Positions 4,390-38,448 of a stretch of DNA of 47,394 nucleotides are shown piece by piece. Made by a program: the position numbers and the translations under genes. Each line of letters begins with the position of its first letter. Within the stretch, counting starts at the first letter, position 1. Below the pieces are notes generated by a model. The model did not search any database. It saw nothing but the letters and a program-made list of their open reading frames with translations, and had not been told where the DNA came from. Source of the stretch: a virus; IMG/VR virus record IMGVR_UViG_3300013830_000001, one strand, 5' to 3'.

Positions 4390-5310
4390 TTAATAGTCAG
4401 TCACAACCTTTCTTGCTACTACGTCGGTTTCGTCGTACATCATATCGAAACGGCAAAATTCAACAAAGACATTTCCGTTCCACGATTGCTCACCATCGGT
4501 TTCAATGTGAGCAACAGAGCCAGCGGAAATGTCCCGTTCAAGATATTCAAGGTGAAATTTATATTTTGCTTTTTCGCGGTTAAGATAACGACAATAGTTT
4601 TTAGCAAATCTTTCTGCTTCTTCCTGAGAAGACATTGGAAAAGGGACTCTCAAAATCTTTGTCTGTCCACTATCAGCAGACATATTGAACGCACCTTTTA
4701 CAGTGTTGTTGAAAAGCTCGATTTTCTTAAAGCAATCAAACGTTGTGTCGGTATATTCAAAATCGTGCCCAGTGGTCAGATTCAAACTAACTTCAGGAGT
4801 CTGACTTTCCAACTTCCGCTCATCATAAATAATTAAGTTCCCGTTATAGATTAAGAAGGAAGCGCCTTCTATCTGACATCTGGTATAGAGAAAATCAAGA
4901 TCTGTGATATTGTTCTGAAAGCAATAATCATAAACATGATCCTCTACACCATAATTTTTAAATGTCAGATTGTGGTTTTGCGCTACTTCTCTTCCAAGCT
5001 GCAGAAGATGAACCTGCTCCCAAGACTTATTCTGCGTTGAGTAAGAGTCTGGAGGCATGCTGTAAGCTTCAATGTGATAGTGCCCGCTGGATGGTCCAAC
5101 ATTCCAGATGTACATCTTCCCAGACTTGCATTTACCGTCTTTTACCTCAATGGTTTCTCCACGTTGGAATCCCCATTGGTCGCAATGCTGTTCAGCATCA
5201 TTCAAAACAAGATTCAGATAATTAGCACGCTTTTCAGCATATTTTTCCAAGGTGCAAGCATTAACAGAAATGTTTGGGTAAATGTCTTTGTCTTTATATT
5301 TAACCTCCAT
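4390..5310 (-). CDS. Baseplate hub protein (P2 gpD / XkdQ / late control D-like)
   Basis: 306 aa after the LysM-like X protein and before the spike; ..NITDLDFLYTRCQIEGASFLIYNGNLIIYD.. is typical of gpD-family proteins. Confidence 0.65.
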   Translation of the reverse strand: MEVKYKDKDIYPNISVNACTLEKYAEKRANYLNLVLNDAEQHCDQWGFQRGETIEVKDGKCKSGKMYIWNVGPSSGHYHIEAYSMPPDSYSTQNKSWEQVHLLQLGREVAQNHNLTFKNYGVEDHVYDYCFQNNITDLDFLYTRCQIEGASFLIYNGNLIIYDERKLESQTPEVSLNLTTGHDFEYTDTTFDCFKKIELFNNTVKGAFNMSADSGQTKILRVPFPMSSQEEAERFAKNYCRYLNREKAKYKFHLEYLERDISAGSVAHIETDGEQSWNGNVFVEFCRFDMMYDETDVVARKVVTDY

Positions 5311-5604: not shown

Positions 5605-8600
5605 CCTCCCTCCGTCTCAGTTCGGTTTCTACGCTATCCATAAACTGCGGCATATACCGTTTCAATGCTCTAATTACGTCTTCTGGCTGTGTTTCAGACG
5701 GAGCCATAGTGATATTTGGAGCAAAAGTAATTCCGCCCATCTCGATGTTAGCTGCTGAATCGGCGTAATTTGGAGTCGGAGAATCGCTGTTGATGTAAAC
5801 AGGATTGCGTTGAAGTTCCATGGACTTCATAAGCCAATCTGGTTTTTTCTCCTGCTCATCCATGTTGTAAGAATTGTAGACATTAGGCTGTGCAACACTT
5901 TGTGCTGCTCTCTGCACCATACGATAGAGGGAAGATGTACCCACTACGGCTTCATCTCCGGCCTCTCCAGCGCCAAGCATCCTTCCATTCTGCCCAATGC
6001 CAAAGATCGTAGGCTTTTTCAGAATTGCGCCAAGCTGCATTGCGGATTTATACCAGCTAACACTAATTCTTGGAACTGAACCAGTTTCTGGATTAAATGT
6101 ACCGGACATGTGGAAACGCGGAATTCTTGGTCTGGAAATCTTCCAGCGAATATGTCCAATAGACGCAAGAATACTTCTGATATTATTCCGCATTCTTCTA
6201 ACCGCGCTCAGTGCAGCAGAAGTATTCGGAGTATGAATTGTAATCTTCTGCTTGCCAAGTGCGCTAATAGACTTCTGCATAGATTTCAGGCTTCCCGCTC
6301 CGCTTGTTCTGACTTTTACGGAGATATGCTTGTTTTTAAGCTTGGAAAGATTATTCCTGAGAGATTTGACAGAGCCTCCACCACTAACAGTAACTTTGAC
6401 TTTCTTGTTCTTTATTTTCTTCAAAGTATCTTTAATGGTTTTAACTTTTTTCGCGGACTTCCCAGTATCAACAGTTACTTTAATGCCTTTTGCATTTGAC
6501 TTTAAGATCTTTATTGCATCGTTAAGAGCACTGATCTTAGCGTCTACACCAGATAGATCAACATCAATTTTGATCTTAGCTTTTTGACTTTTGCCAGTAG
6601 AAGCAGCGCGCTTTATCTCAGTTGTTGCATCTGATACATCAACTTTAACGCTTGCTTTCTTTTTGAGCTTGACTTGATCTTCTGGATCAACCTGAGCATG
6701 TGCTTTAACCTTTAGAGGCTTTCCATACTTCTTTGTATACGCCTGTTGTGTTTGCTGATAAGACTTCTCAGCTGCCACCATTGCGGATTTGCTGCCCTTG
6801 CCAGTTTCATAATTTACTTTCGCTTGAGCATACTTATCAGCAGCCTTCTGTACAGTTTGCTTGGCATGTTTCTTATCAAGATGTTTGTTCCATTGATTCT
6901 TAATATGGGGCCATGCAACAGCTAATCCAACTCCAGCCGCTGCTACACCAGCAGCAGCAAGTTTTGCTTGTATCGGCAGAGCTTTTAAAGCAGCCATAAT
7001 TCCGCCACCAGCAGCAGATCCGCCCGCTCCAAGCAAAGTTGCGAGACTTCCAAAGCCATTGGAACCAGCAGCCATTTCTCCAGCCGCTGCCGCTGCCGTA
7101 CCAGCTTTGCCAAACAGGCCAATCATTTTCCCAATACTTTTTGAGAAAACGCCACTTCCAGCAAGCGAAGTGAGAAGTTTACCACCAATGCCAGAGCCGT
7201 TCATGCCTTTAAGAAGTGCGCCGCCGATTTTTCCGCCTAGTCCTTTGCTTGCAAATTTCCCTGCGATTTTTCCGAGAAGGCCTTCACCAGCAAGTGCTTT
7301 CACAGCTGGTGAACCAGCTCCAAGAAAAACATCTTTCAAAAGTGAGCCTTTGCCCATCAGATTTCCGAGCACATCAGAAATACCGCTAAGTCCAGTATGT
7401 AATTTTCCAAGTACAATAAGAGCAGGGCCAAGAAGAGCAACACCAGCAACGGATTTCGCAATTAAGTTTTTCGTCCAGTCAGGCATTTTGGCAAAGCTGC
7501 TGTTGAACCGTTCGAACATCTTGTTGATGTTCTTTAGCCCGTTCAAAAGAGTTGGTGTAAGAGCGTCAAACAACTGAATACCGGCGGTTTGAAGTTTGCT
7601 TTTTAGCAAAGTCAATTGCCCAGGAATATTGTTGACGCGTTCAATTGCCATTTCTGCTGCTTTACCGCCGCCCTTATTGGCCGTATCCAGAGCAGCTTTC
7701 AGCTGTTTATTTTTGGCCATGTTAACTGGGTCGGTAGCCATTAACTGTAACAGTGCTGCCATTCCACGCTTGCCGGCAATGCTTTCTGCAAGCTGTACTT
7801 TCTGGGCCTTGGTCATGCCTTCTGTTTTCTTTTGGAGATCAGCAATTACATCCCCAAAGTTGCGCATAGTACCATCAGCATTTCTTGTCTTAACTGTAAC
7901 TTGGCCTAACTTATCATTGTAGAAGGTCCAATCTTTAGTCATAGACGTAAGAATATTTCTTAAAGAAGTGCCCGCCATGGAGCCTTTAATATTGGCGTTT
8001 GCCATAACTCCTAATGCGTTAATAGTATCTTTTGAAGAATATCCGAAGGCACCTGCTACCGTTCCGACATACTTTAAGGATTCTCCGAGATCAAGAACAT
8101 CTGTGTTGGAGTTCGCAGCTGCTGCGGCCAATTGGTTAACAAGAGTAGAAGCCTGAGAAACAGGCATTTTAAGAGCAGCTAAATTACCAGTTACAATTTC
8201 AGTTGCTTTTTCTGGTTCAATTTTAAATGCAGCGGAAAGATCAATAACGCTCTTTCCGCCTTGCTTCATATCTCTAAATTTCCAACCAGCCATGCCCATG
8301 TTTGACATAGCATCGGCAACTTGAGAAGCTGAAAAGACAGTATCATTACCCATCTTAATGGCATACTGTCTCATCTGCTGAAACGTTTTACCAGTCTCAC
8401 CAGTGATAGCCTTTACTCGGCTCATCTTGTTATCAAATGTAGCTGTTGTTTTCCCAGCCCATCCAATAGCAGCCATAGCAGGGCCAGAAATGGACATCAT
8501 AGATCGTCCCATTCTGGTTAATTTCTCACCAGTTTGTTTCTGCCATCCTGCTAGCTGGTGAAGTCTGTTCCCGGCAGTAGAATAGTAATTGATAGCCTCT

Positions 8601-10008: not shown

Positions 10009-11492
10009 TATTCCTCACCTCCATAAGTGAAAGAAGTATAACCAGCATCAGACCATTTGCAGGAAAGATGGAAGTAATGTGCTTCAGGAGTCGGGGTAGC
10101 AAGGCCGTCAAAGTAGAACTCACCATTAACCCAGTTGGTGTAGCTATCACCATCCGTAACAAAAGTGATAGTCGGAGAAGTTCCGTTCTCAGCGTCACGG
10201 AGAAGTGCGCCAGCGCCAACAAGAGAATCAAGCTGGCTCTGCTCTTCCTCGACAACAGCATCTCTAAGAGCAGTTGTCATTGGACGATCAATTTTGCTTG
10301 CATGTCTCTGTTGGAAGCCATTCATGATGTACTGAATCATGCGAATAGATACATCAAAAATAATGGAAGCGTCATTGTCCACGCCATACTGATATGCTGC
10401 AGTATGACCGCCCCAAAGAACCCACTGGCCACCAGAAGGAATAGCCGTTCCAATGCCAGCAGCATTGAGCTCATTTGCAATAACTTCACCAAATCCATTA
10501 TTAACAGAGTTAACACCGAAGTACTGTTTGATTACAGGAATACTCTTATTGGAGCAAGTCTCCATAGGAATATTCTCATTTGCGTAATCAATTCTCATCT
10601 GCTCAACAGTTGCCAGAGTGGAAAGATGATAGACATTACCATCTGCGCCAGTTGCTCTGGGCCACCATACAGAAGAAATGCTGTTGTTGATGCCGTTCTT
10701 AGACTTCCAATCAATGGCCTTTTCATAGGTGTCAATAAGTTTATTATCTGCACCAACAAGCGGAATGTCAGCCTCAACAAAAGCATCAAAATGATTGTTG
10801 ATCTTCCGTGCAGCGGAGCAAAGAGCCTGATAAATTTTCGGGTTCTCAGAGAAGCCGGGAGCAGCAATCAGGTTGACTACATCAAAGTTCTTGCTGTAGA
10901 CAAGCTCAATAGCAGAAAGCCCCGTCATTTCGCCCTGATCCGATACACCGCCGATAACGTCTTCTGCAGTAACCTTAGTAGGATCTACCACATCATAAGT
11001 TGCATCAACCGTACCAGTGATTTTGTCAGAGGTAACAACAAACTTGGATTTTGTAAAGTTGTAGGTAATGTCATAGTCAGTACCAGCAACTTTGTCTGCA
11101 ATCTTAAAGCTGTCAATAATTGCTTTATCATCAGCAAAAGAAGCAGAACCGTTCGCAAAGTTCAGAGATACTTTCTTGCTCTCCTCGGCCTTATGAGCAA
11201 CCGGATCAAGTACGTTAATCATATAAATTGGAGCAATTGCGCCATTCGCGTTGAAGAAGTGTGCTCTCATTGCCTCGCACAGAGTGAAGCTCTCCCAGTC
11301 ATCAGAGTAGCCACACTGAGCTACAGCGCGAGACCAGTTAATCATCCGAAGCGGTTTGTTTACATAATCAGAACCGTTTTTCAGAAGATTTACTGGAGCA
11401 GTTCCAACGTATACGGCATTAGTTCCAGTCTGTACAGTGCTGCGGGAAATAGTCTCTCCCTGATCAGCACCAATACCATGTTTGTATGCCAT
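10008..11492 (-). CDS. Contractile tail sheath protein
   Basis: 494 aa; N-terminus MAYKHGIGADQGETISRSTVQTGTNAVYVGTAPVN is typical of FI/sheath proteins; followed by the tube gene. Confidence 0.9.
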   Translation of the reverse strand: MAYKHGIGADQGETISRSTVQTGTNAVYVGTAPVNLLKNGSDYVNKPLRMINWSRAVAQCGYSDDWESFTLCEAMRAHFFNANGAIAPIYMINVLDPVAHKAEESKKVSLNFANGSASFADDKAIIDSFKIADKVAGTDYDITYNFTKSKFVVTSDKITGTVDATYDVVDPTKVTAEDVIGGVSDQGEMTGLSAIELVYSKNFDVVNLIAAPGFSENPKIYQALCSAARKINNHFDAFVEADIPLVGADNKLIDTYEKAIDWKSKNGINNSISSVWWPRATGADGNVYHLSTLATVEQMRIDYANENIPMETCSNKSIPVIKQYFGVNSVNNGFGEVIANELNAAGIGTAIPSGGQWVLWGGHTAAYQYGVDNDASIIFDVSIRMIQYIMNGFQQRHASKIDRPMTTALRDAVVEEEQSQLDSLVGAGALLRDAENGTSPTITFVTDGDSYTNWVNGEFYFDGLATPTPEAHYFHLSCKWSDAGYTSFTYGGEE

Positions 11493-11503
11493 AATCAGTC
11501 TCC

Positions 11504-12148
11504 TTAATCTTCAAGTAAAGGTTTTATTGTTGTGTGAATACTGAATGCAGGTGTCAGCACGTTAAATGATATGTAAGTAAAAAAGTACGGGTAGAATTCG
11601 TGTTTGTATTTGTATGCGGATGCATCGCCCTTTTTGATACTTACACTCTGATCTAAGAAGGTATACTTCCCGAAGTGCTGCGAATTTTGAATAACTCGCT
11701 CTGCGACATCTGCAAAATTCCACGCATCTTCCCATCCAGCAATGGATTTTTGGAATTCCAGCTCAGGGTCAGAGCGGTAAAGGATGTTGCCGTTAGAATC
11801 TTTAACAAGATTCCCGTTCTCATCTTTAATTGGATACATAACATCTTGAGAATGAATCCCCGGATTCCACGTTCCAAATACAAGCGTAATTGGAATGGAT
11901 TCAAACTTTTCTATCAGATCACGTTTGACTGGTGATTCATCTCTTCCAGTTACAACTACACAGGACGGATGACGATAGTCTGTCTGGTCCGCGAACTCTG
12001 GATACATCGCATAACATTTTGGAGTAACCAGTTTATATGGGTATTCTCCATCATGTACTGTATCGCTAGCTTGTTTGAGTTTTACAAGAGGGCAAATTTC
12101 TTTCTCTACGAAATCGCGAATTTCATTAATACATACTGTCGTTTGCAT
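11504..12148 (-). CDS. Hypothetical virion protein (neck / tail-completion position)
   Basis: 214 aa between the head genes and the sheath gene; no motif recognised. Confidence 0.4.
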   Translation of the reverse strand: MQTTVCINEIRDFVEKEICPLVKLKQASDTVHDGEYPYKLVTPKCYAMYPEFADQTDYRHPSCVVVTGRDESPVKRDLIEKFESIPITLVFGTWNPGIHSQDVMYPIKDENGNLVKDSNGNILYRSDPELEFQKSIAGWEDAWNFADVAERVIQNSQHFGKYTFLDQSVSIKKGDASAYKYKHEFYPYFFTYISFNVLTPAFSIHTTIKPLLED

Positions 12149-17141: not shown

Positions 17142-17450
17142 TTACCAGTTATTGTTATAAACGGCTGCACGAACATGAGTCCGTTTACTTCCTTTTTCAA
17201 TCAGATTCTCGTACTTAGCAATTTCAGACATGAGTTCGGATTCAAGATTGTAAAGCTCATCTGCTGACCAATCATGATGCTCAACATTTCTGGAACCAAT
17301 CTGGTACTTTACAATTTTCCCATCCATCAGTTCTTCAATTGCTTTATATGTGAGTTCCAACTGCTCATTCAGCATTCTGAGATGTCGCTCATAACGATTC
17401 TTTTTAGAACTTGAAATCGTCTCCAAAATTTCCACCTCCGTAAAAATCAA
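17142..17450 (-). CDS. Head-tail joining protein (lambda gpW-like)
   Basis: Lies between TerL and portal as in lambda; ..AIEELMDGKIVKYQIGSRNVEHHDWSADELYNLESEL.. parallels gpW. The true start may be the internal ATG at 17375. Confidence 0.55.
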   Translation of the reverse strand: MIFTEVEILETISSSKKNRYERHLRMLNEQLELTYKAIEELMDGKIVKYQIGSRNVEHHDWSADELYNLESELMSEIAKYENLIEKGSKRTHVRAAVYNNNW

Positions 17451-19362
17451 ATGAAGCCTTTTTACGCCTTGGCTTTTCAGGAGCTTTCTTTACTACATCT
17501 TGTTTGATTTCCTGCTCAATCTGATCCATGTTCAGATTTCCGGAAATGGTTCTAAATGCAGCCATTGCATAATTTCTACAGTCCAACGGCTCATTTCTCT
17601 TGTGTCCAACAATTGGTTTCCACACCCATTTAGACACACCGTTCTTTCTTTCATATACTTTTTTCTCTGACAGAAGGCCATTGAAGTATTCTTCGTTATA
17701 TCCTCTGTCCGGATTTGAAGGAAAATGGCAATACTTTGTCCCCGGAGACTGGACAAGCAAAGAGCTCATAATAAGTTCTTTTCCTGCATCAACTCCAAGG
17801 TTGTACAAGTTAATGTATTTAGGCTTGACAGATTTTCGTTTTGATTTTTTTGATTTTCCCCAAGTGCCTCTCAAAGTTATGTCATATCTGTTCGGGCGGG
17901 TAACGTATGGATAACCAGAACCGCCCCTTCCTCGAATAGCAAAGATGTTTTTGTACTTCCATTTGTAGCAAATTTCATAGACGTCTTCTGTATGATGTCC
18001 TTGGGAGTCAATAAACGTTAATGAAATTCTTCGCCCTTTGCCGTTCTTGTAATGCCATGTTTTGTCCATCAAGCCTTCAAGAGTGCTCCAGACCTGTTTG
18101 TTATCCTTAGAAGGAATGCCCATGATGATTCCTCGCTGGATTCCCCAAGTTTCCCCGAATTTTCCATGCCCTACTACTTCGTACTCCAGTCTGTCATCCT
18201 GAGTATCAACGCCCATAGTAAGCACCAACACTCCGTCTGGAATTTCAGCGTCGTACTCTTCGCGCCTTTTTAGATATTCTGATTCATCGCCTATGTCGCT
18301 TCTGTCTTCCCAGAGCTCTCCAAACAAAGTGTTGCAGACTACCTTCAATCTTTCTGGATCATCTTTTGATTCCAGAAATTTCATAATGATTTTTGCCCAT
18401 GGAGTCCAAGGCGAACAAAAAGCATTCAGCCAAAATGACCGAATGCCTTTGTTGTATGCTGTTGGGTTATTAGCCACCCATTTTTGCTTTTGACGTCTTG
18501 CCGTATCTTCCGGAATTAAACATCCGCAATGTGGGCAAAGCCAGTCAGGGCCAGACGTAATCTTATACTGATTCTTTCCATTTACTTTGGTGTGTGTTTC
18601 CTGATACCGGATGCTATTAAAAGTTATCTCTGAATACTCTCCGCATTCAGGACATTGTGTGCACCATCTTTCTTGTGTGCCTTGCAAATAAGATGTCTCA
18701 ATATTTGACGCGCCCTTGATTGTTGGGGTAGAAACTTCAACAGACTTACTGTTAAAGAACGTGGCTTGTCTTGCCTTGGCAAGCTCCCACGGGTCGCCTT
18801 CGCGTCCTGCGCTTGGAGCCCAGCGGTCGCGCTCATCTCCAATAATGTATCTGGCCGGAGTGGAAGCAAGTGCAGACGGGCTGTTGGAGCCTGTTATAAA
18901 AAGCCTTCCTCCGGGGAAAGACTTGATAAGTTTTGTGTTTGAATTATCACGTCCGCCCTTGGTAGGCTTTATTTTTTTCTTCAGTGGCTTGCAGTCTCGA
19001 ATCATCGGATTGATTCTTAGATCTGAAAACTTTGCTGCATCGTCCAAATTTGGCTGTACATAAATTATTGTCGCTGGGTCCTGATCTACTGCATAAGCAA
19101 TACAATTTAGCTCAAATTCAGACTTGCCAATCTGAGAAGCAGAAACCATTACAATGTTTCGAACTTTTGGATCTGTGAAAGCATCCATCGGTTCTTTCAA
19201 GTAAGGCGTCCTTGATGTTCTCCAAGGCCCAGCCTCGGCTGAACTTTCTGGTGAAAGTCTTCTATATTTATCAGCCCACTCCGAAACCGTTATGTCTTCA
19301 GGAGGGCTGAAGTTTTTACAAACTTTTTCAAATATATTCGTCGTCTGAGTCTTCATCGTCAA
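17404..19362 (-). CDS. terL: Terminase large subunit (lambda GpA family)
   Basis: 652 aa; ..VSEWADKYRRLSPESSAEAGPWRTSRTPYLKEPMDAF.., a Walker-like SASQIGKSE segment, and a Cys cluster CTQCPECGEY...CPHCGC. Confidence 0.9.
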   Translation of the reverse strand: MTMKTQTTNIFEKVCKNFSPPEDITVSEWADKYRRLSPESSAEAGPWRTSRTPYLKEPMDAFTDPKVRNIVMVSASQIGKSEFELNCIAYAVDQDPATIIYVQPNLDDAAKFSDLRINPMIRDCKPLKKKIKPTKGGRDNSNTKLIKSFPGGRLFITGSNSPSALASTPARYIIGDERDRWAPSAGREGDPWELAKARQATFFNSKSVEVSTPTIKGASNIETSYLQGTQERWCTQCPECGEYSEITFNSIRYQETHTKVNGKNQYKITSGPDWLCPHCGCLIPEDTARRQKQKWVANNPTAYNKGIRSFWLNAFCSPWTPWAKIIMKFLESKDDPERLKVVCNTLFGELWEDRSDIGDESEYLKRREEYDAEIPDGVLVLTMGVDTQDDRLEYEVVGHGKFGETWGIQRGIIMGIPSKDNKQVWSTLEGLMDKTWHYKNGKGRRISLTFIDSQGHHTEDVYEICYKWKYKNIFAIRGRGGSGYPYVTRPNRYDITLRGTWGKSKKSKRKSVKPKYINLYNLGVDAGKELIMSSLLVQSPGTKYCHFPSNPDRGYNEEYFNGLLSEKKVYERKNGVSKWVWKPIVGHKRNEPLDCRNYAMAAFRTISGNLNMDQIEQEIKQDVVKKAPEKPRRKKASFDFYGGGNFGDDFKF

Positions 19363-21552: not shown

Positions 21553-21594
21553 AAAAAGCAGAAAGCAAAAAAGCGGGGCGCCGCCGCGCTCCGC
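21553..21594 (-). terminator. Intrinsic terminator closing the GC-rich island
   Basis: Minus strand GCGGAGCGC-GGCG-GCGCCCCGC (one A.C mismatch) followed by TTTTTTGCTTTCTGCTTTTT. Confidence 0.6.
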
Positions 21595-21800
21595 TCTTGT
21601 GCTTGTGCTCTTGCTCTGTGTGCTGTGCTTCGGTGGGGCTCCGCTTGCTGGGGTGGCACTAGACACGGCCGGGGGCTGTGGGCTCTTGCCTTGCTCTGCT
21701 CTCCCCTTAGTGCTCGGTGCTCTGGCGCTTGCAAGTGCGCGCCGTGCTTGCTTCAGCTGATGGGGCCCGCCGCTAGTGCTCCGCTGTGGGTCTGCTCTGC
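21573..21800 (-). other. GC-rich, strand-asymmetric non-coding island (candidate ncRNA or packaging/cos-type site)
   Basis: About 230 nt with roughly ten A residues on the plus strand (U-poor on the minus-strand transcript). Repeated GTGCT/AGCAC motifs and several G-runs. Preceded by a TTGACA box and followed by a terminator. Confidence 0.4.
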
Positions 21801-21857
21801 TTCTATTCCTTTCCCGCTACAAAAATTAAGACCTATACCAGCATGGCACAGGCCTTA

Positions 21858-21886
21858 TATATGTATGTACTTTTTACATCTGTCAA
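21858..21886 (-). promoter_or_regulatory. Possible sigma-A-type promoter reading into the GC-rich island
   Basis: Minus strand TTGACA (21886-21881), 17 nt, then CATATA within an ACATATATA stretch. Confidence 0.35.
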
Positions 21887-22265: not shown

Positions 22266-22526
22266 TTATTCTTCTTTTTCATCTTCTTCAAGCCGCTTTA
22301 AAATTCCAATGATTTCGTCGGTTTCGTCCTTCGTGAGTGTGTACTCTTCTTTCATCTCTTCCCGGTCTTCTGCTCTCCATCCGCCGCCGTAGAGTGCCGC
22401 GGCTTCTTCCTGTGCCATATACCGAACATGATCCCAGTATCTAGCGGGATCTGCATCGTATGCAGCTTCTGCGGAAATTTCTTTTTCTTCGATGCTTTCA
22501 AACATATCTTCAAAATAATTTTTCAT
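22266..22526 (-). CDS. Small acidic protein (86 aa), function unknown
   Basis: Own promoter copy, AAAGGAGAAAA SD; E/D-rich ..MFESIEEKEISAEAAYDADPARYWD..LKRLEEDEKEE. Confidence 0.7.
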   Translation of the reverse strand: MKNYFEDMFESIEEKEISAEAAYDADPARYWDHVRYMAQEEAAALYGGGWRAEDREEMKEEYTLTKDETDEIIGILKRLEEDEKEE

Positions 22527-22571
22527 GATTTTCTCCTTTCCCTGTCGGGGTTCTTGTTTCTTTCTGTCTTT

Positions 22572-22599
22572 ATTATAACTCTTTAATTATATTTTTCAA
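22572..22599 (-). promoter_or_regulatory. Sigma-A-type promoter (TTGAAA-16-TATAAT), copy 2 of the duplicated block
   Basis: Minus strand cTATTGAAAaatataattaaagagtTATAATaaagacag. Confidence 0.7.
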
Positions 22600-22672
22600 T
22601 AGTTATTTTTAACAAATAATCCGCTCTGCTTTTGGGCGGATTGCAGAAATAAAAAATGTGCTTGAAAAGCGC

Positions 22673-22701
22673 TTGAAATACACGATTGTATATAATATAC
22701 T
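22673..22701 (+). promoter_or_regulatory. Plus-strand promoter of the opposite-strand moron (TTGAAA-17-TATACT; a TATAAT overlaps)
   Basis: gcTTGAAAtacacgattgtatataaTATACTgtag, followed by a structured 5' leader GGGGCAAGG-GTTGGAG-CCTTACCCC. Confidence 0.5.
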
Positions 22702-22761
22702 GTAGTCACAGGGGCAAGGGTTGGAGCCTTACCCCAAGTATACAGAAAGGAGGAAAAACCG

Positions 22762-22872
22762 ATGAATAAATTCCATTCGGTTTTAGACATTTTCAACGTT
22801 GCCTCAACGGTGTTGAATTTTATTAGCTCAGTTTTAACAATCGTTGCGTTGATAAAGTCTAAGAGAGATTAA
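22762..22872 (+). CDS. 36-aa hydrophobic peptide (holin-like / type I toxin-like)
   Basis: AAAGGAGGA SD 7 nt before the ATG; MNKFHSVLDIFNVASTVLNFISSVLTIVALIKSKRD: one TM span and a basic C-terminus. Below the 60-aa cut-off of the ORF track. Confidence 0.55.
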   Translation: MNKFHSVLDIFNVASTVLNFISSVLTIVALIKSKRD

Positions 22873-22880
22873 ATTCTCGT

Positions 22881-22906
22881 CCAGGGGAGGAGCTTTCCTC
22901 CTCTGG
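22881..22906 (+). terminator. Strong hairpin (possible attenuator) between the two small peptide ORFs
   Basis: CCAGGGGAGG-AGCTTT-CCTCCTCTGG (10 bp with one G.U) followed by TTTCC. Confidence 0.35.
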
Positions 22907-22947
22907 TTTCCACAATGGAATTATAGCACTTCGGAGTATTAATTACT

Positions 22948-23052
22948 ATGGAAATTTTTGAGTTGATTTTAAGCATCACAAATTTCATAATATCCGCCAC
23001 CTTATTTTTCGTTATTGTTAAATACATAGGTAAAAGCAATGGAAAAAAGTAA
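22948..23052 (+). CDS. 34-aa hydrophobic peptide (second holin-like / toxin-like peptide)
   Basis: MEIFELILSITNFIISATLFFVIVKYIGKSNGKK: one TM span and a basic C-terminus; its 3' end overlaps the ATG of the next ORF by 14 nt. Confidence 0.5.
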   Translation: MEIFELILSITNFIISATLFFVIVKYIGKSNGKK

Positions 23053-23221
23053 AAGCAAATACGCAGCGCAGATGAAATATAATAGAAAGAATTATGTCCC
23101 GTTTCATATTGACTTTAAACCGGAAGTTCTAAACGAATTCCGTGCGAAATGTAAGGAAAACGGAACAACTGCGACAACAGAAATAAAAAAATTTGTAAAC
23201 GATTATAACAAATCTCATTGA
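23039..23221 (+). CDS. 60-aa RHH/Arc-like small DNA-binding protein (putative)
   Basis: ..RKNYVPFHIDFKPEVLNEFRAKCKENGTTATTEIKKFVNDY: a strand-helix-helix pattern; followed by a strong terminator. Confidence 0.55.
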   Translation: MEKSKSKYAAQMKYNRKNYVPFHIDFKPEVLNEFRAKCKENGTTATTEIKKFVNDYNKSH

Positions 23222-23253
23222 AGAGTGGCCCCTTTTTGGGGCTTCTCTTTTTT
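23220..23253 (+). terminator. Intrinsic terminator of the plus-strand moron
   Basis: GAAGAGTGGCCCC-TTTTT-GGGGCTTCTC followed by TTTTTT. Confidence 0.8.
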
Positions 23254-23280
23254 CTAAAAAATGTTCAAAAAGAATGTTGA

Positions 23281-23314
23281 AAAATATAACAAAAGCCGCT
23301 GGAAATTCCAGCGG
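23281..23314 (-). terminator. Intrinsic terminator after the 123-aa gene (convergent with the moron terminator)
   Basis: Minus strand GCCGCTGGA-ATT-TCCAGCGGC followed by TTTTGTTATATTT. Confidence 0.8.
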
Positions 23315-23319
23315 CAAAA

Positions 23320-23691
23320 TTATTCTTCGTTCTTTTTTGCATCTCGCTTCTGCTTCATCTTTTCCAAGCAGTCCGGGCAAGTCTTTTTACTGTATCCTTC
23401 CGGTAAAACTTTCCCACAGCGGACGCAACAGTGTGTATCTAAATTTTTATCATAGTAAGTTTTAGCATAAGAATTTCTTGGCGTGTTTGGAATTCTTTTT
23501 GACCTGGAGTCTGGATTCTTTACGTCTTTTCGGATCAACCACACGTTAGAATTTTCTAATCTAAAAGCGGGAATTAAACCTTTAGTAGCCTTGACGGTTG
23601 CAGCAGAAGGGGTAATTCCATTCTTCCGTGCCCACTCTCGAAGCGTTTCAATATCTTTAACCTTGAAATCTTTCGCATATTTTAAATCCAT
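23320..23691 (-). CDS. Putative DNA-binding protein with a C-terminal zinc ribbon
   Basis: 123 aa; consensus promoter and GGAGGTGGAAAA SD; C-terminal CVRCGKVLPEGYSKKTCPDC. Confidence 0.6.
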   Translation of the reverse strand: MDLKYAKDFKVKDIETLREWARKNGITPSAATVKATKGLIPAFRLENSNVWLIRKDVKNPDSRSKRIPNTPRNSYAKTYYDKNLDTHCCVRCGKVLPEGYSKKTCPDCLEKMKQKRDAKKNEE

Positions 23692-23710
23692 TTTTCCACC
23701 TCCGGAAACT

Positions 23711-23802: not shown

Positions 23803-24900
23803 TTAATCAAGTCCATTATACAGTTTCAGCATTCTGTCGAAATCGTTGTATAAATCTTGGATGTTTCCGGAGTGCCCGCACCAGTACAGATGATCTTGCT
23901 TCACGGCTGGCATATTGTACCAGATTCCAGGTCTGAACTTTGTTCCGCTCCAATAGCCGTCCTTATATCTTGCATCGAATGGGGCTGACTGTCCAGCTAG
24001 GTTAACAAAGCCATCGTTACGATACCAGCTCATGAAATCCGGATGATACTTCAGGCCCGCAGCGTTCCCGGAAATAGCCATTATGGTTCCGCAATAGCGA
24101 CAAGCACCAGACATTTCAAAAGTCGGTTCAAATGCTCTCTGAGCAAAATAGTACGTGCCCTTATTTACAACCTGCTTGGGGTTGATATGCTTCTGAACAA
24201 AATCAATATCCATTTCTTTTGATACATCATCGTCCAGACTCAAGCTGTACTTGGTGGCCTTGGCGATAGCTCCTCCTGTCCACTGATCAAGCTTGTTTTC
24301 ATAATCTCCATTGCCGTTGATGGTGTCGTTAAACATGATTCCAAAGATTGTGGCAATGCTGATACCTGTCCGGTCTGTTAAGGTTGCAGCCATCGTCCCG
24401 TTGTTGACCCCTGAGAGAGTCGTCACAGTATGAATCAGGTCGCCATGTCCTCCAGCAAAAAGGGGCGACAAATCGTCTGCAGCGGTTCCGTCCCGTTCCT
24501 CCTTGCTCCCCTGAGTAAAGAGATTAGAAACTTCTTTGACAGTTGCTCCGCCCAAAGAGTGGCCAAACAGGTCAATTTTCATGTGCTTCTCAGACTGCCC
24601 CAAGTCCTTCAATGCTCCTGGATAAGTTGCGCCGTATCTTTCATGGTGGACTCTGGCAGAGTGCACCTTGCCATAGTCTACACGCCCCCCGAACAAATAC
24701 GCCCACAGGATACATGCTCTGTCCCATGCAGAGTTGTAAGGGCCGAGGCTGGGATAATGGACTTCATATCCTTCACTCTGTAAATGCTCTATCAGATTGT
24801 TACCCTTATATCCCCAGTATGGGAGAAGGTCAGAGTTCTTCACTTCGTCTTCGTGTCCGTAGCCGTAAAGGCCATGGATGAGTACAATCGGGTATCTCAC
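23803..24900 (-). CDS. Triacylglycerol lipase / esterase, alpha/beta-hydrolase (staphylococcal/Bacillus family I.5-I.6-like), no signal peptide
   Basis: 365 aa; YPIVLIHGLYGYG, GGRVDYGKVHSARVHHERYGATYPG, nucleophile elbow GHSLGG, ..SPLFAGGHG..TTLSGVNNG.., WYRNDGFVN and KQDHLYW. These are collinear with S. aureus Geh-type lipases. GTG start overlaps the MTase stop (GTGA). Confidence 0.85.
   Translation of the reverse strand: MRYPIVLIHGLYGYGHEDEVKNSDLLPYWGYKGNNLIEHLQSEGYEVHYPSLGPYNSAWDRACILWAYLFGGRVDYGKVHSARVHHERYGATYPGALKDLGQSEKHMKIDLFGHSLGGATVKEVSNLFTQGSKEERDGTAADDLSPLFAGGHGDLIHTVTTLSGVNNGTMAATLTDRTGISIATIFGIMFNDTINGNGDYENKLDQWTGGAIAKATKYSLSLDDDVSKEMDIDFVQKHINPKQVVNKGTYYFAQRAFEPTFEMSGACRYCGTIMAISGNAAGLKYHPDFMSWYRNDGFVNLAGQSAPFDARYKDGYWSGTKFRPGIWYNMPAVKQDHLYWCGHSGNIQDLYNDFDRMLKLYNGLD
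24796..24888. repeat. 93-nt direct repeat, copy 1 (codons 5-35 of the lipase gene)
   Basis: Matches 26536-26628: the first 51 nt are identical and the remaining 42 nt carry 6 substitutions, 5 of them synonymous in the lipase frame. Confidence 0.9.
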
Positions 24901-36479: not shown

Positions 36480-36863
36480 GTGACCATCATGGATAAAAAA
36501 GTATCTACGATTTCGCAAAGATTAAAGGATGCACTTGAAATCAGGCACATGACAGCCGCAGAGCTTTCGCGCTTAACTGGCGTCAAAGAGTCGGACCTGT
36601 CTCACTACAAAAAAGGCGACTACGAGCCAGCTTCTAGAAATCTCGAAAAGATGGCCGACGCCCTCCATGTTTCTATCCCGTGGCTGATGGGCTACGAGGT
36701 GGAAATGGAAGAGCAAACCGATAGCAAAGACGAATTTAGACAAGAGATGTTCGACGAGGACAACGTTCTTTTTGACTATACTCACCTGTCTGATGAGAGT
36801 AAAAAGACAGTCCGCAGCATCATCAACGCCTTAAAGGCACAGGAAAATAACAACAATCCTTAA
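36480..36863 (+). CDS. CI/ImmR-like XRE-family repressor
   Basis: ..ISQRLKDALEIRHMTAAELSRLTGVKESDLSHYKKG.. HTH plus a C-terminal tail; the ATG at 36489 (SD GAGAGGTGA) is the likely start. Confidence 0.8.
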   Translation: MTIMDKKVSTISQRLKDALEIRHMTAAELSRLTGVKESDLSHYKKGDYEPASRNLEKMADALHVSIPWLMGYEVEMEEQTDSKDEFRQEMFDEDNVLFDYTHLSDESKKTVRSIINALKAQENNNNP

Positions 36864-37320: not shown

Positions 37321-38448
37321 ATGCAAAATTTGCCGTATCTCCTGCCACAAAAAGAAAGGAGATTTAAAGCCATGAAAAAAAGAAAAGACGGACGCTATCA
37401 AAAAAAGGTAGTTGTCCAAAGAAACGGACAGGCCTATATCAAGTGGGTCTACGGAAAAACCCGCGCGGATGTACAGCGCAAGGAGGACGATTTTAAAGCA
37501 GAGATCGATAGCATGGCTGTGCCGACTGTGAGCCAGCTAGTCGAGAAGTATCACGATCCGTGCTTCCAGCGCTATAGCTATCTAACAGCAATGCACTACG
37601 ATGATATTTTAAAAGCATGGTGCGAGCGGTGCGGACTGGAAAACGCCAGGATCACCGACGTCCGAGCCAAAGACGTCATGCAGTATGTACAGGAGCTAGC
37701 TGACCAAGGAATGGCAAGCTCATCAATCCACAATGTCATAACAGCCATCCGCAACATCTACAATTTTGCGGCGGTTGAGTACGACAACATGCAAATCGGA
37801 AACCCCGCCGTGACCGTGCTTGTTCCAGTTAACGCGAAACCAGCAAAGAAGGTGCCACCGCCAAGCAAAGAGGACTTGCAGAACGTCGTCAACGGCGTTG
37901 GCCTCCAATTTGGGCTCTTTGCCTATCTCATGCTGTACTCTGGCCTGAGGAGGAGCGAGGCGCTTGCCCTCAAATGGGAGGACTGTTATGACGGCTACAT
38001 CCATGTCCGGCACTCGATCATCTTTGACCGCCATGGTGCGGCCGTAGATCGTCCTTATGCAAAGACCGCCGCTGGTATCAGAGATGTGCCAATCTTTCCG
38101 CCTTTGCAACCTTATCTCAAGCACGGCAAGCGGAAGAAAGGGTACATCTTTAGCCACGACGGTAAGCCTTTAAAAGAAACTTGGTACAACTCCGCGTGGG
38201 ACAAGTACAGACTAGAAGCACACGTAAGCTGTACACCGCACCAACTCCGGCATGCCTTTTGCACGACGTGTTACGAATCAGGAGTCGATGCTAAAGTGTG
38301 CGCCGCATGGATGGGACACGCAAGCATCACGACTACGCTAAACATCTACACGTCCATCTCACTAGAGCAGGAAAAAGAGGAGTCGGAGAAAATGGTAGAG
38401 CTGTACAAAAAACAGGGGCTGACTAACTTTTACCAAAACTCTGACTAA
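37321..38448 (+). CDS. int: Tyrosine integrase
   Basis: ..LYSGLRRSEALALKWED.., ..TPHQLRHAFCTTCYESGVD..WMGHASITTTLNIYTS (R..HxxR..Y). The likely start is the ATG at 37372 after AAAGGAGA. Confidence 0.9.
   Translation: MQNLPYLLPQKERRFKAMKKRKDGRYQKKVVVQRNGQAYIKWVYGKTRADVQRKEDDFKAEIDSMAVPTVSQLVEKYHDPCFQRYSYLTAMHYDDILKAWCERCGLENARITDVRAKDVMQYVQELADQGMASSSIHNVITAIRNIYNFAAVEYDNMQIGNPAVTVLVPVNAKPAKKVPPPSKEDLQNVVNGVGLQFGLFAYLMLYSGLRRSEALALKWEDCYDGYIHVRHSIIFDRHGAAVDRPYAKTAAGIRDVPIFPPLQPYLKHGKRKKGYIFSHDGKPLKETWYNSAWDKYRLEAHVSCTPHQLRHAFCTTCYESGVDAKVCAAWMGHASITTTLNIYTSISLEQEKEESEKMVELYKKQGLTNFYQNSD

Follow-up and report, generated by a model that had tools for sequence, protein, structure and literature searches.

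What is a small transcription unit that runs against the direction of its surroundings, and what might it do for the prophage that carries it? The question is raised by a plus-strand cassette at positions 22673-23253 of the viral record IMGVR_UViG_3300013830_000001. The window, by which we mean the whole 47,394-nucleotide (nt) stretch of DNA that was analysed, is a prophage transcribed almost wholly from the minus strand. Reading of the sequence together with the listing of open reading frames (ORFs) over 22300-23700 identified, within about 580 bp, a promoter, the genes of two peptides of 36 and 34 amino acids (aa) with one transmembrane (TM) span each, an overlapping gene for a 60-aa ribbon-helix-helix (RHH)-like protein, and a terminator. 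As read from the DNA, these parts recur in the same order and are jointly conserved across prophages of Clostridia. We interpret the cassette as an autonomous prophage unit encoding a tightly silenced membrane-toxin module of the toxin-antitoxin (TA) type, a reading that taken as a whole we give about an even chance of being right; the regulatory anatomy is more secure than the assignment as a toxin cassette.

The sense promoter, TTGAAA-17-TATACT (22673-22701, plus strand), agrees with the consensus at 10 of 12 positions and contains within its spacer the palindrome ATACA-CGAT-TGTAT (22678-22691), a candidate operator for the RHH protein. A strong Shine-Dalgarno (SD) sequence, AAAGGAGGA (22746-22754), precedes the first peptide, P1 (MNKFHSVLDIFNVASTVLNFISSVLTIVALIKSKRD), which is encoded at 22762-22872 in what we call the first or D slot. 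The second peptide, P2 (MEIFELILSITNFIISATLFFVIVKYIGKSNGKK; 22948-23052), occupies the second or P slot and has a weak SD. Both peptides end in a basic C-terminus. The gene of the RHH-like protein, a putative autorepressor (23039-23221), starts 14 nt before the end of P2, and the unit closes with an intrinsic terminator (GGCCCC-TTTTT-GGGGCT at 23227-23243 with a T-run to 23253) that faces the minus-strand terminator of a 123-aa gene (23315-23295). A preliminary description of this DNA had listed the promoter, the two basic-tailed one-span peptides, the 14-nt overlap, the RHH-like gene and the opposed terminators, and all of these were found where it placed them. It had also called the cassette the only plus-strand unit outside the lysogeny module. 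This is weaker than it was put: the plus strand carries the CI-like repressor (36480-36863) and the integrase (37321-38448), but also several other ORFs without a family match. The palindromic operator, an antisense promoter, the wide conservation of the cassette and the conservation of a stem-loop after the first peptide gene, all presented below, go beyond that description.

The layout of the cassette is widely shared. A database search recovered 54 relatives of the RHH protein, all about 60 aa long and with 13 invariant residues in common, and the family is compact, with 149 representatives at E ≤0.001 among 1.84 billion proteins. A profile of the RHH protein fetched 148 loci from genome and viral contigs, more were added by exact protein look-up and from metagenomes, and removal of redundancy at 90% nucleotide identity left 74 modules. 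Where the records name a host, it belongs to the Clostridia, including Lachnospiraceae, Oscillospiraceae, Acutalibacteraceae, Christensenellaceae and others. Peptides were counted strictly as ORFs of 20-75 aa whose hydropathy averaged 2.0 or more over 17 residues, and a peptide was considered proximal when its ORF ended between -45 and +60 nt relative to the RHH start. On the sense strand, a proximal peptide was present in 57 of the 74 modules, a distal one in 41 and both in 34. The antisense strand of the same regions gave 13, 24 and 3 of 74, respectively, and random positions in the same loci 6%, 14% and 1.1%. Inspection showed many of the strict-count misses to be threshold failures; a relaxed census found the proximal peptide in 64/74, the distal in 53/74 and both in 52/74, with no abutting peptide ORF in 10/74. 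On this comparison, the peptide-peptide-RHH layout is not due to chance.

The small ORFs also evolve as coding sequences would. Among equal-length pairs, the pooled ratio of nonsynonymous to synonymous differences per site (pN/pS) is 0.31 in the first slot, 0.25 in the second and 0.16 in the RHH gene, with median substitution-rate ratios (dN/dS) of 0.16, 0.20 and 0.08, respectively. These values support purifying selection on both peptide slots, and with it their translation. Intact P1 alleles are present in the related loci L154 and L155, and an identical P2 in a third, L001. For P2, comparison of the window with L155 gives a pS of 0.69 and a pN of 0.20. For P1, comparison with L154 gives 0.62 and 0.30, beside a promoter and leader that are almost identical between the two, which suggests allele exchange or diversification of the peptide. 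Strong SDs, such as AGAAAGGAGG, precede most first-slot peptides of the relatives, most second-slot peptides have no SD, and the RHH start overlaps the stop of the second peptide. The format of a TM span with a charged tail persists across unrelated sequences of 28-62 aa. The N-terminus of the first-slot peptide is rich in Lys in most relatives, and its C-terminus is hydrophobic; P1 of the window is without the Lys-rich N-terminus and resembles P2. Some second-slot relatives have two spans, and the types of first and second peptide co-vary.

These observations bear on the simplest alternative, in which only the RHH protein has a function and the small ORFs of its long leader either serve regulation or arose by chance. 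The RHH protein is indeed the most conserved part of the cassette, L001 retains P2 and RHH without P1, and the modules without an abutting peptide ORF are what this alternative would expect. It is difficult to reconcile, however, with pN/pS well below 1 in both slots, with the persistence of the peptide format, with the strong excess of peptides over the antisense and random controls, and with the lack of any other operator copy in the prophage that could serve as an RHH target. We therefore leave it only a slim chance. The preliminary description had allowed that its reading would fail if the 60-aa ORF were conserved and the peptides were not; instead, small TM ORFs are kept in position, type and frame beside the RHH family.

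The identity of the 60-aa protein was approached through profiles and structure. It had been called Arc/CopG-like, and an RHH fold is still the best assignment, although the evidence for it is sub-threshold. Pfam ParG matches the window protein with an E value of 0.0068 and 17.0 bits against a cut-off of 21.4, and it matches, again below threshold, in 37 of 51 aligned sequences (the window protein and 50 relatives). The PHROG family "Arc-like repressor" scores 7.6e-4. The family profile finds ParG (1p94) and 2kel in the PDB at E ~0.13, the latter being an RHH regulator of a Sulfolobus virus. An AlphaFold2 model with a mean confidence (pLDDT) of 75 predicts an extended segment followed by two helices, and the top Foldseek matches include ParG, Arc and CopG, none of them significant for a domain this small. 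NCBIfam and PADLOC returned nothing useful for the cassette proteins, and tblastn with the RHH protein found no match in phages or plasmids. The protein thus most likely adopts the RHH fold within a family that lies outside the curated libraries. In both the alignment and the model, the RHH core takes up all of the protein but an N-terminal arm of about 15 aa and a few residues at the C-terminus, and no separate neutralising domain is seen. In a few relatives (L024, L095-L097 and L045), a C-terminal extension of about 60 aa resembles a second strand-helix-helix unit.

How the RHH protein is likely to act is suggested by the promoter. Small RHH proteins such as Arc and Mnt on Pant in the immI region of phage P22, CopG and ParG repress a strong promoter through an overlapping palindromic operator, and residues of the N-terminal arm of RHH proteins of these types contribute to specificity. 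In relatives of the cassette, the first peptide gene is preceded by a near-consensus promoter, TTGACA-17-TATAAT, placed as in the window, with a palindrome, TAyACG-NN-CGTrTA, occupying its spacer. In 56 of the 74 modules the core ACGNNCGT adjoins the -35 box, compared with a frequency of 0.156 per kb in the rest of the loci. Moreover, the operator half-sites follow the arm of the encoded protein: RHH arms with "YNR" pair with CACGnnCGTG in 20 of 20 cases, and for arms with "HLR", "HIR", "NLR" or "SLR" the partner is TACGnnCGTA, in 35 of 35. In the remaining case, a YNR protein, the operator is a hybrid that combines an arm of either type, which brings the overall covariation to 55/56. This covariation is the strongest evidence from which we infer that the RHH protein binds the spacer palindrome. 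The window protein has a YNR arm, and the left half of its operator, ATACACG, matches it; the operator of L155 is TATACA-AC-TGTATA. The 47-kb window holds no further operator copies, the palindrome at 22678-22691 being the sole exact one, and the RHH protein therefore looks like a dedicated autoregulator.

A second layer of control is predicted at the RNA level. An antisense extended -10 box, TGCTATAAT, lies on the minus strand at 22920-22928, as read from the complement of the plus-strand letters. Among the related modules this box, TGnTATAAT, is fixed at 20-36 nt before the start of the second peptide. At least seven of its eight positions are matched in 42 of 57 modules, compared with 7% on the plus strand and 4% in shuffled sequences, and all eight in 23% compared with 0.3%. 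The box is found in 77% of modules in which the first peptide is present and in 33% of those in which it is absent. Transcription from it would start near 22913 and run leftward, copying first the stem-loop and then the complement of P1, of the P1 SD and of the sense promoter. The minus strand of 22600-22913 folds with a z score of -5.5 and ends at a hairpin (AATCCGC-N11-GCGGATT followed by AUUUGUU, 22618-22642, minus strand), a candidate terminator of the predicted RNA. Among the 33 related cassettes with a divergent upstream gene, 19 have a minus-strand terminator at the equivalent place. The predicted antisense RNA contains a minus-strand ORF of 64-66 aa (MSKTEWNLFIGF...; 22596-22796) that overlaps the sense promoter and leader and is probably spurious.

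The stem-loop itself, an 11-bp GC-rich structure without a U-run directly after the P1 stop (22881-22906), would be part of the sense mRNA and of the predicted antisense RNA alike. The intergenic region of the window folds at -25 kcal/mol (z -3.96), and 28 of 33 related intergenic regions have z scores below -2 (mean -3.5), with differing sequences and mostly four-base loops. Compensatory changes are found among the window, L154 and L155. In RNAalifold on a MAFFT alignment of six intergenic regions, the hairpins were out of register and the weak covariation term was uninformative, so the per-sequence folds were used. The structured 5' leader of the preliminary description stands in part: a hairpin (GGGG.AAGG ... 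CCUU.CCCC, 22711-22735) is present and has counterparts in L154, L153 and L002, but with a z score of -0.85 it is not exceptional alone.

The combination of convergent promoters and a hairpin downstream of a short peptide gene is reminiscent of the switches of pCF10 and pAD1, and it is conceivable that the first-slot peptide is a pro-pheromone like SHP or iCF10, with the antisense promoter and hairpin forming an attenuator as in prgQ/Anti-Q of pCF10. The format of most first-slot peptides would fit. Nevertheless, no RRNPP-type receptor is present, the 60-aa RHH protein is without a ligand-binding domain, P1 of the window departs from the Lys-rich format in favour of a P2-like one, and the hairpin has no U-run. 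Peptide signalling is in our view very unlikely.

Taken together, these elements suggest the following model for the proposed membrane-toxin module. A dimer of the RHH protein would bind the palindrome and repress its own strong promoter. The antisense promoter would produce an RNA of about 300 nt, beginning with the stem-loop and complementary to the P1 mRNA, which would lower the translation or stability of P1. P2 would be poorly translated, and the RHH protein would be made by translational coupling to P2. Both peptides would be membrane-active toxins kept nearly silent under these layers of control, and the cassette would act in addiction or abortive infection, stabilising the cell that bears the prophage or defending it. 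P1 and P2 have the general make-up of type I toxins, being hydrophobic, shorter than 60 aa, and each with a TM span and a charged tail. The TA-like option had been one of several offered before; it is now favoured by the conservation of the operator and of the antisense -10 box and by the abundance of TA and defence genes in the neighbourhoods, but no known toxin family is matched.

The neighbourhoods of the related cassettes also speak to how the unit travels. The genes on its two sides are oriented (-,-) in 21 loci, (+,+) in 15, (+,-) in 11 and (-,+) in 10. Across loci the neighbours include terminases, HNH, sigma-70 region 4/DUF1492, IS30 transposases, HicB and Phd, as well as Abi_2, AbiA-HEPN, TIR, Tad2, integrases and lysis genes. 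Because orientation is variable and the neighbours are mixed, the cassette is best described as an autonomous accessory unit, or moron, in prophage hotspots. In L150, a single 12-kb island contains three peptide-plus-RHH cassettes (5892-6183, 7005-7290 on the minus strand, and 11439-11880), and these are interspersed with RelB/YafQ and Phd/YoeB pairs, an SPP1-type holin and a truncated Lip_C gene. One of the three combines a 39-aa peptide with an RHH protein of the RepB-RCR_reg type, and the RHH allele of the first is recorded on 566 contigs. IS30-type transposase genes (rve + HTH_38) lie directly after the 3' end of the RHH gene or are fused into it in L147 (3986-5272), L016, L102, L127, L028 and L121, which suggests that the end of the cassette is a preferred IS30 insertion site.

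Accessory positions, an own promoter and independence of the phage operons would equally suit superinfection exclusion, in which non-toxic membrane peptides would block DNA entry by other phages and the RHH protein would set their level. Small membrane proteins are a common format of exclusion factors, T4 Imm being an example. Exclusion, however, requires steady expression, which an operator within a consensus promoter, an antisense promoter and a second peptide poor in SD would all limit, and one island can hold several copies together with TA pairs. Every layer of the predicted control would limit peptide output, and this fits toxins better than constitutive exclusion factors. We consider exclusion a serious explanation but an unlikely one.

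A leaderless two-peptide bacteriocin with an RHH regulator had also been suggested, and two tandem small peptides without leader sequences are compatible with it. No transporter, immunity or modification genes were found in the window or near the 74 related loci, and a hydrophobic span of 20-25 residues under tight repression is not the format of a secreted amphipathic peptide. This makes a bacteriocin highly improbable.

The peptides could alternatively act as a holin/antiholin-like pair that permeabilises the membrane or tunes the timing of lysis once the RHH protein is titrated at induction. A charged C-terminus after one or two TM spans matches the format of holins, the two-span relatives of the second peptide resemble class II holins, and co-varying peptide types are expected of partners. 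Against this, no peptide set matched a Pfam family, and among 54 related peptides the holin families gave no more than a single weak BlyA match. No holin family matched P1 or P2, and in the window the cassette is on the opposite strand and not linked to an endolysin. Its contexts elsewhere are varied, and it has an autorepressor of its own in place of late-gene control. Thus, a role in lysis appears quite unlikely. The profile search proposed earlier for type I toxin, Hol-Tox or holin families placed no peptide in any of them; by Pfam, NCBIfam and PHROG, neither P1 nor P2 belongs to Fst, TxpA/BsrG, YonT, Hol-Tox or the C. difficile toxins. The hidden Markov models of PADLOC-DB gave no match for P1, P2, the RHH protein or the neighbours, and an exact-sequence look-up of P1 returned no record.

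Several observations weigh against the proposed toxin module. P1 and P2 match no family in Pfam, NCBIfam, PHROG or PADLOC, and tblastn with both found nothing significant in deposited phages. The 60-aa protein, having no evident toxin-binding domain in the alignment or the model, may be a regulator only. The covariation of arm and operator could come partly from shared descent, and the right half of the window operator is 2 bp closer than in the family consensus. The stem-loop after the first peptide gene has no U-run, and the hairpin at 22618-22642 would be a weak terminator for the predicted antisense RNA. Finally, in L001 the promoter and all of P1 except its last 33 nt have been replaced and P2 and RHH kept; because the promoter and most of P1 are lost there, the full set is not always kept. 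That locus is a related prophage on a 2.3-Mb contig, in which positions 4700-5000 correspond to 22540-22840 of the window. What it retains, from the hairpin and the antisense -10 box to P2 and RHH, is about 97% identical to the window.

Among systems that have been worked out, the closest is yonT-yoyJ/SR6 of the Bacillus subtilis prophage SPbeta, likewise prophage-borne with two small tandem ORFs on one mRNA. There, an antisense RNA is transcribed from an extended -10 promoter between two tandem small toxins, no rho-independent terminator follows the first ORF, and the second toxin is barely translated (PMC5848175). The two systems have no sequence similarity. The predicted antisense RNA of our cassette would differ in stopping short of the P2 ribosome site, and the cassette adds a putative RHH repressor gene, probably coupled to P2 in translation, and a candidate operator in the promoter. 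Type I toxins of 34-35 aa from C. difficile prophages have been proposed to stabilise those prophages (PMC6563280). Three of them, CD0956.3, CD0904.1 and CD2907.2, share with the cassette a hydrophobic N-terminal part, a Lys-rich C-terminus and a location in prophages of Clostridia (PMC6563280); they differ in having a single toxin and no protein regulator, and no homology to P1 or P2 was detected by tblastn against deposited phages.

Type II TA systems with RHH antitoxins (RelBE, ParDE, CcdAB) and omega-epsilon-zeta are similar in their small overlapping genes and their location on mobile elements beside other TA pairs, and the RHH-like protein and the candidate operator at the cassette's own promoter would be further points in common. 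In the cassette, however, the putative toxins are membrane peptides of 30-60 aa and not enzymes, the RHH gene comes last and its product is without an evident separate toxin-neutralising domain, and the design includes a predicted antisense promoter. PanT/PanA and RosmerTA (RmrT/RmrA) are protein-controlled two-gene modules of phages or mobile elements with membrane-depolarising TM toxins and a role in defence (PMC10440598), but their antitoxins are Panacea/DUF4065 and Xre-peptidase proteins, their toxins are larger, and no homology or PADLOC match was found here. The Arc/Mnt, CopG and ParG systems differ in their cargo, which is an antirepressor, Rep or ParF, and the cassette RHH protein matches such families only below threshold. 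The logic of the cassette is thus one of known ideas combined, a type I antisense layer with a type II-style autorepressor, and its components match no curated family. No description of the RHH family, the operator or the peptide-peptide-RHH cassette was found in full-text literature, and the cassette is apparently undescribed.

A bolder version of the toxin proposal, which we offer tentatively and regard as rather unlikely, is a TA design outside the type I-VIII scheme. In it, the two co-evolving membrane peptides would form a toxin-antidote pair in the membrane, the first abundant and the second poorly translated, under a cis-antisense RNA and an RHH autorepressor. At least two operator specificity classes would insulate co-resident copies, and the modules would be common in prophages of human-gut Clostridia and act in prophage addiction or abortive infection.

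In the window, the cassette follows the end of the early/accessory block and precedes the late-block promoters, the hairpin at 22618-22642 lying just before the minus-strand late-operon promoters. The minus strand encodes a terminase (17404-19362), portal, tape measure, baseplate, anti-repressor, cytosine methylase and lipase-like proteins. The direct surroundings of the cassette consist of a zinc-ribbon protein, the lipase-like protein and small proteins without assignment, with no adjoining endolysin. The convergent minus-strand gene at 23320-23691 encodes a 123-aa protein with a C-terminal CxxC...CxxC zinc-ribbon and weak family matches, and is also kept beside the cassette in L001 and L154. 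Two genes from the cassette, a minus-strand gene at 23803-24900 encodes a 365-aa lipase-like alpha/beta hydrolase (Pfam Lip_C, 3.8e-44) with a partial match to the staphylococcal YSIRK lipase; lipase-like proteins recur near the related cassettes in L001, L154 and L150. Further away, between an 81-aa gene and a neck-like 194-aa gene, lies a tract of about 250 nt (21572-21860, minus sense) that is 65% GC, almost free of T and rich in AGCA/GAGCA. It is preceded by a promoter-like site and a hairpin, ends in a strong terminator (21585-21572), and has no convincing ORF and no Rfam match; a non-coding RNA and a site related to packaging are two possibilities. An Rfam scan of the whole window gave no family. 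Near and distant DNA searches with the cassette neighbourhood found no match in deposited phages, and exact DNA patterns of the window leader, the P2 start and the operator found none in viral or metagenome contigs.

Annotation overlooks most small membrane peptides, and the dominant Clostridia of the gut have so far yielded few known TA or defence modules. The cassette recurs in dozens of prophages of Lachnospiraceae and Oscillospiraceae and offers testable parts: an operator that predicts repressor arm residues, a predicted antisense RNA and two candidate toxins. If the toxin interpretation is correct, these loci would represent a new family of prophage-stabilising or abortive-infection modules for gut anaerobes. 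They would also provide a natural set of orthogonal small repressor-operator pairs and a case in which RNA and protein control act together on one small-toxin operon.

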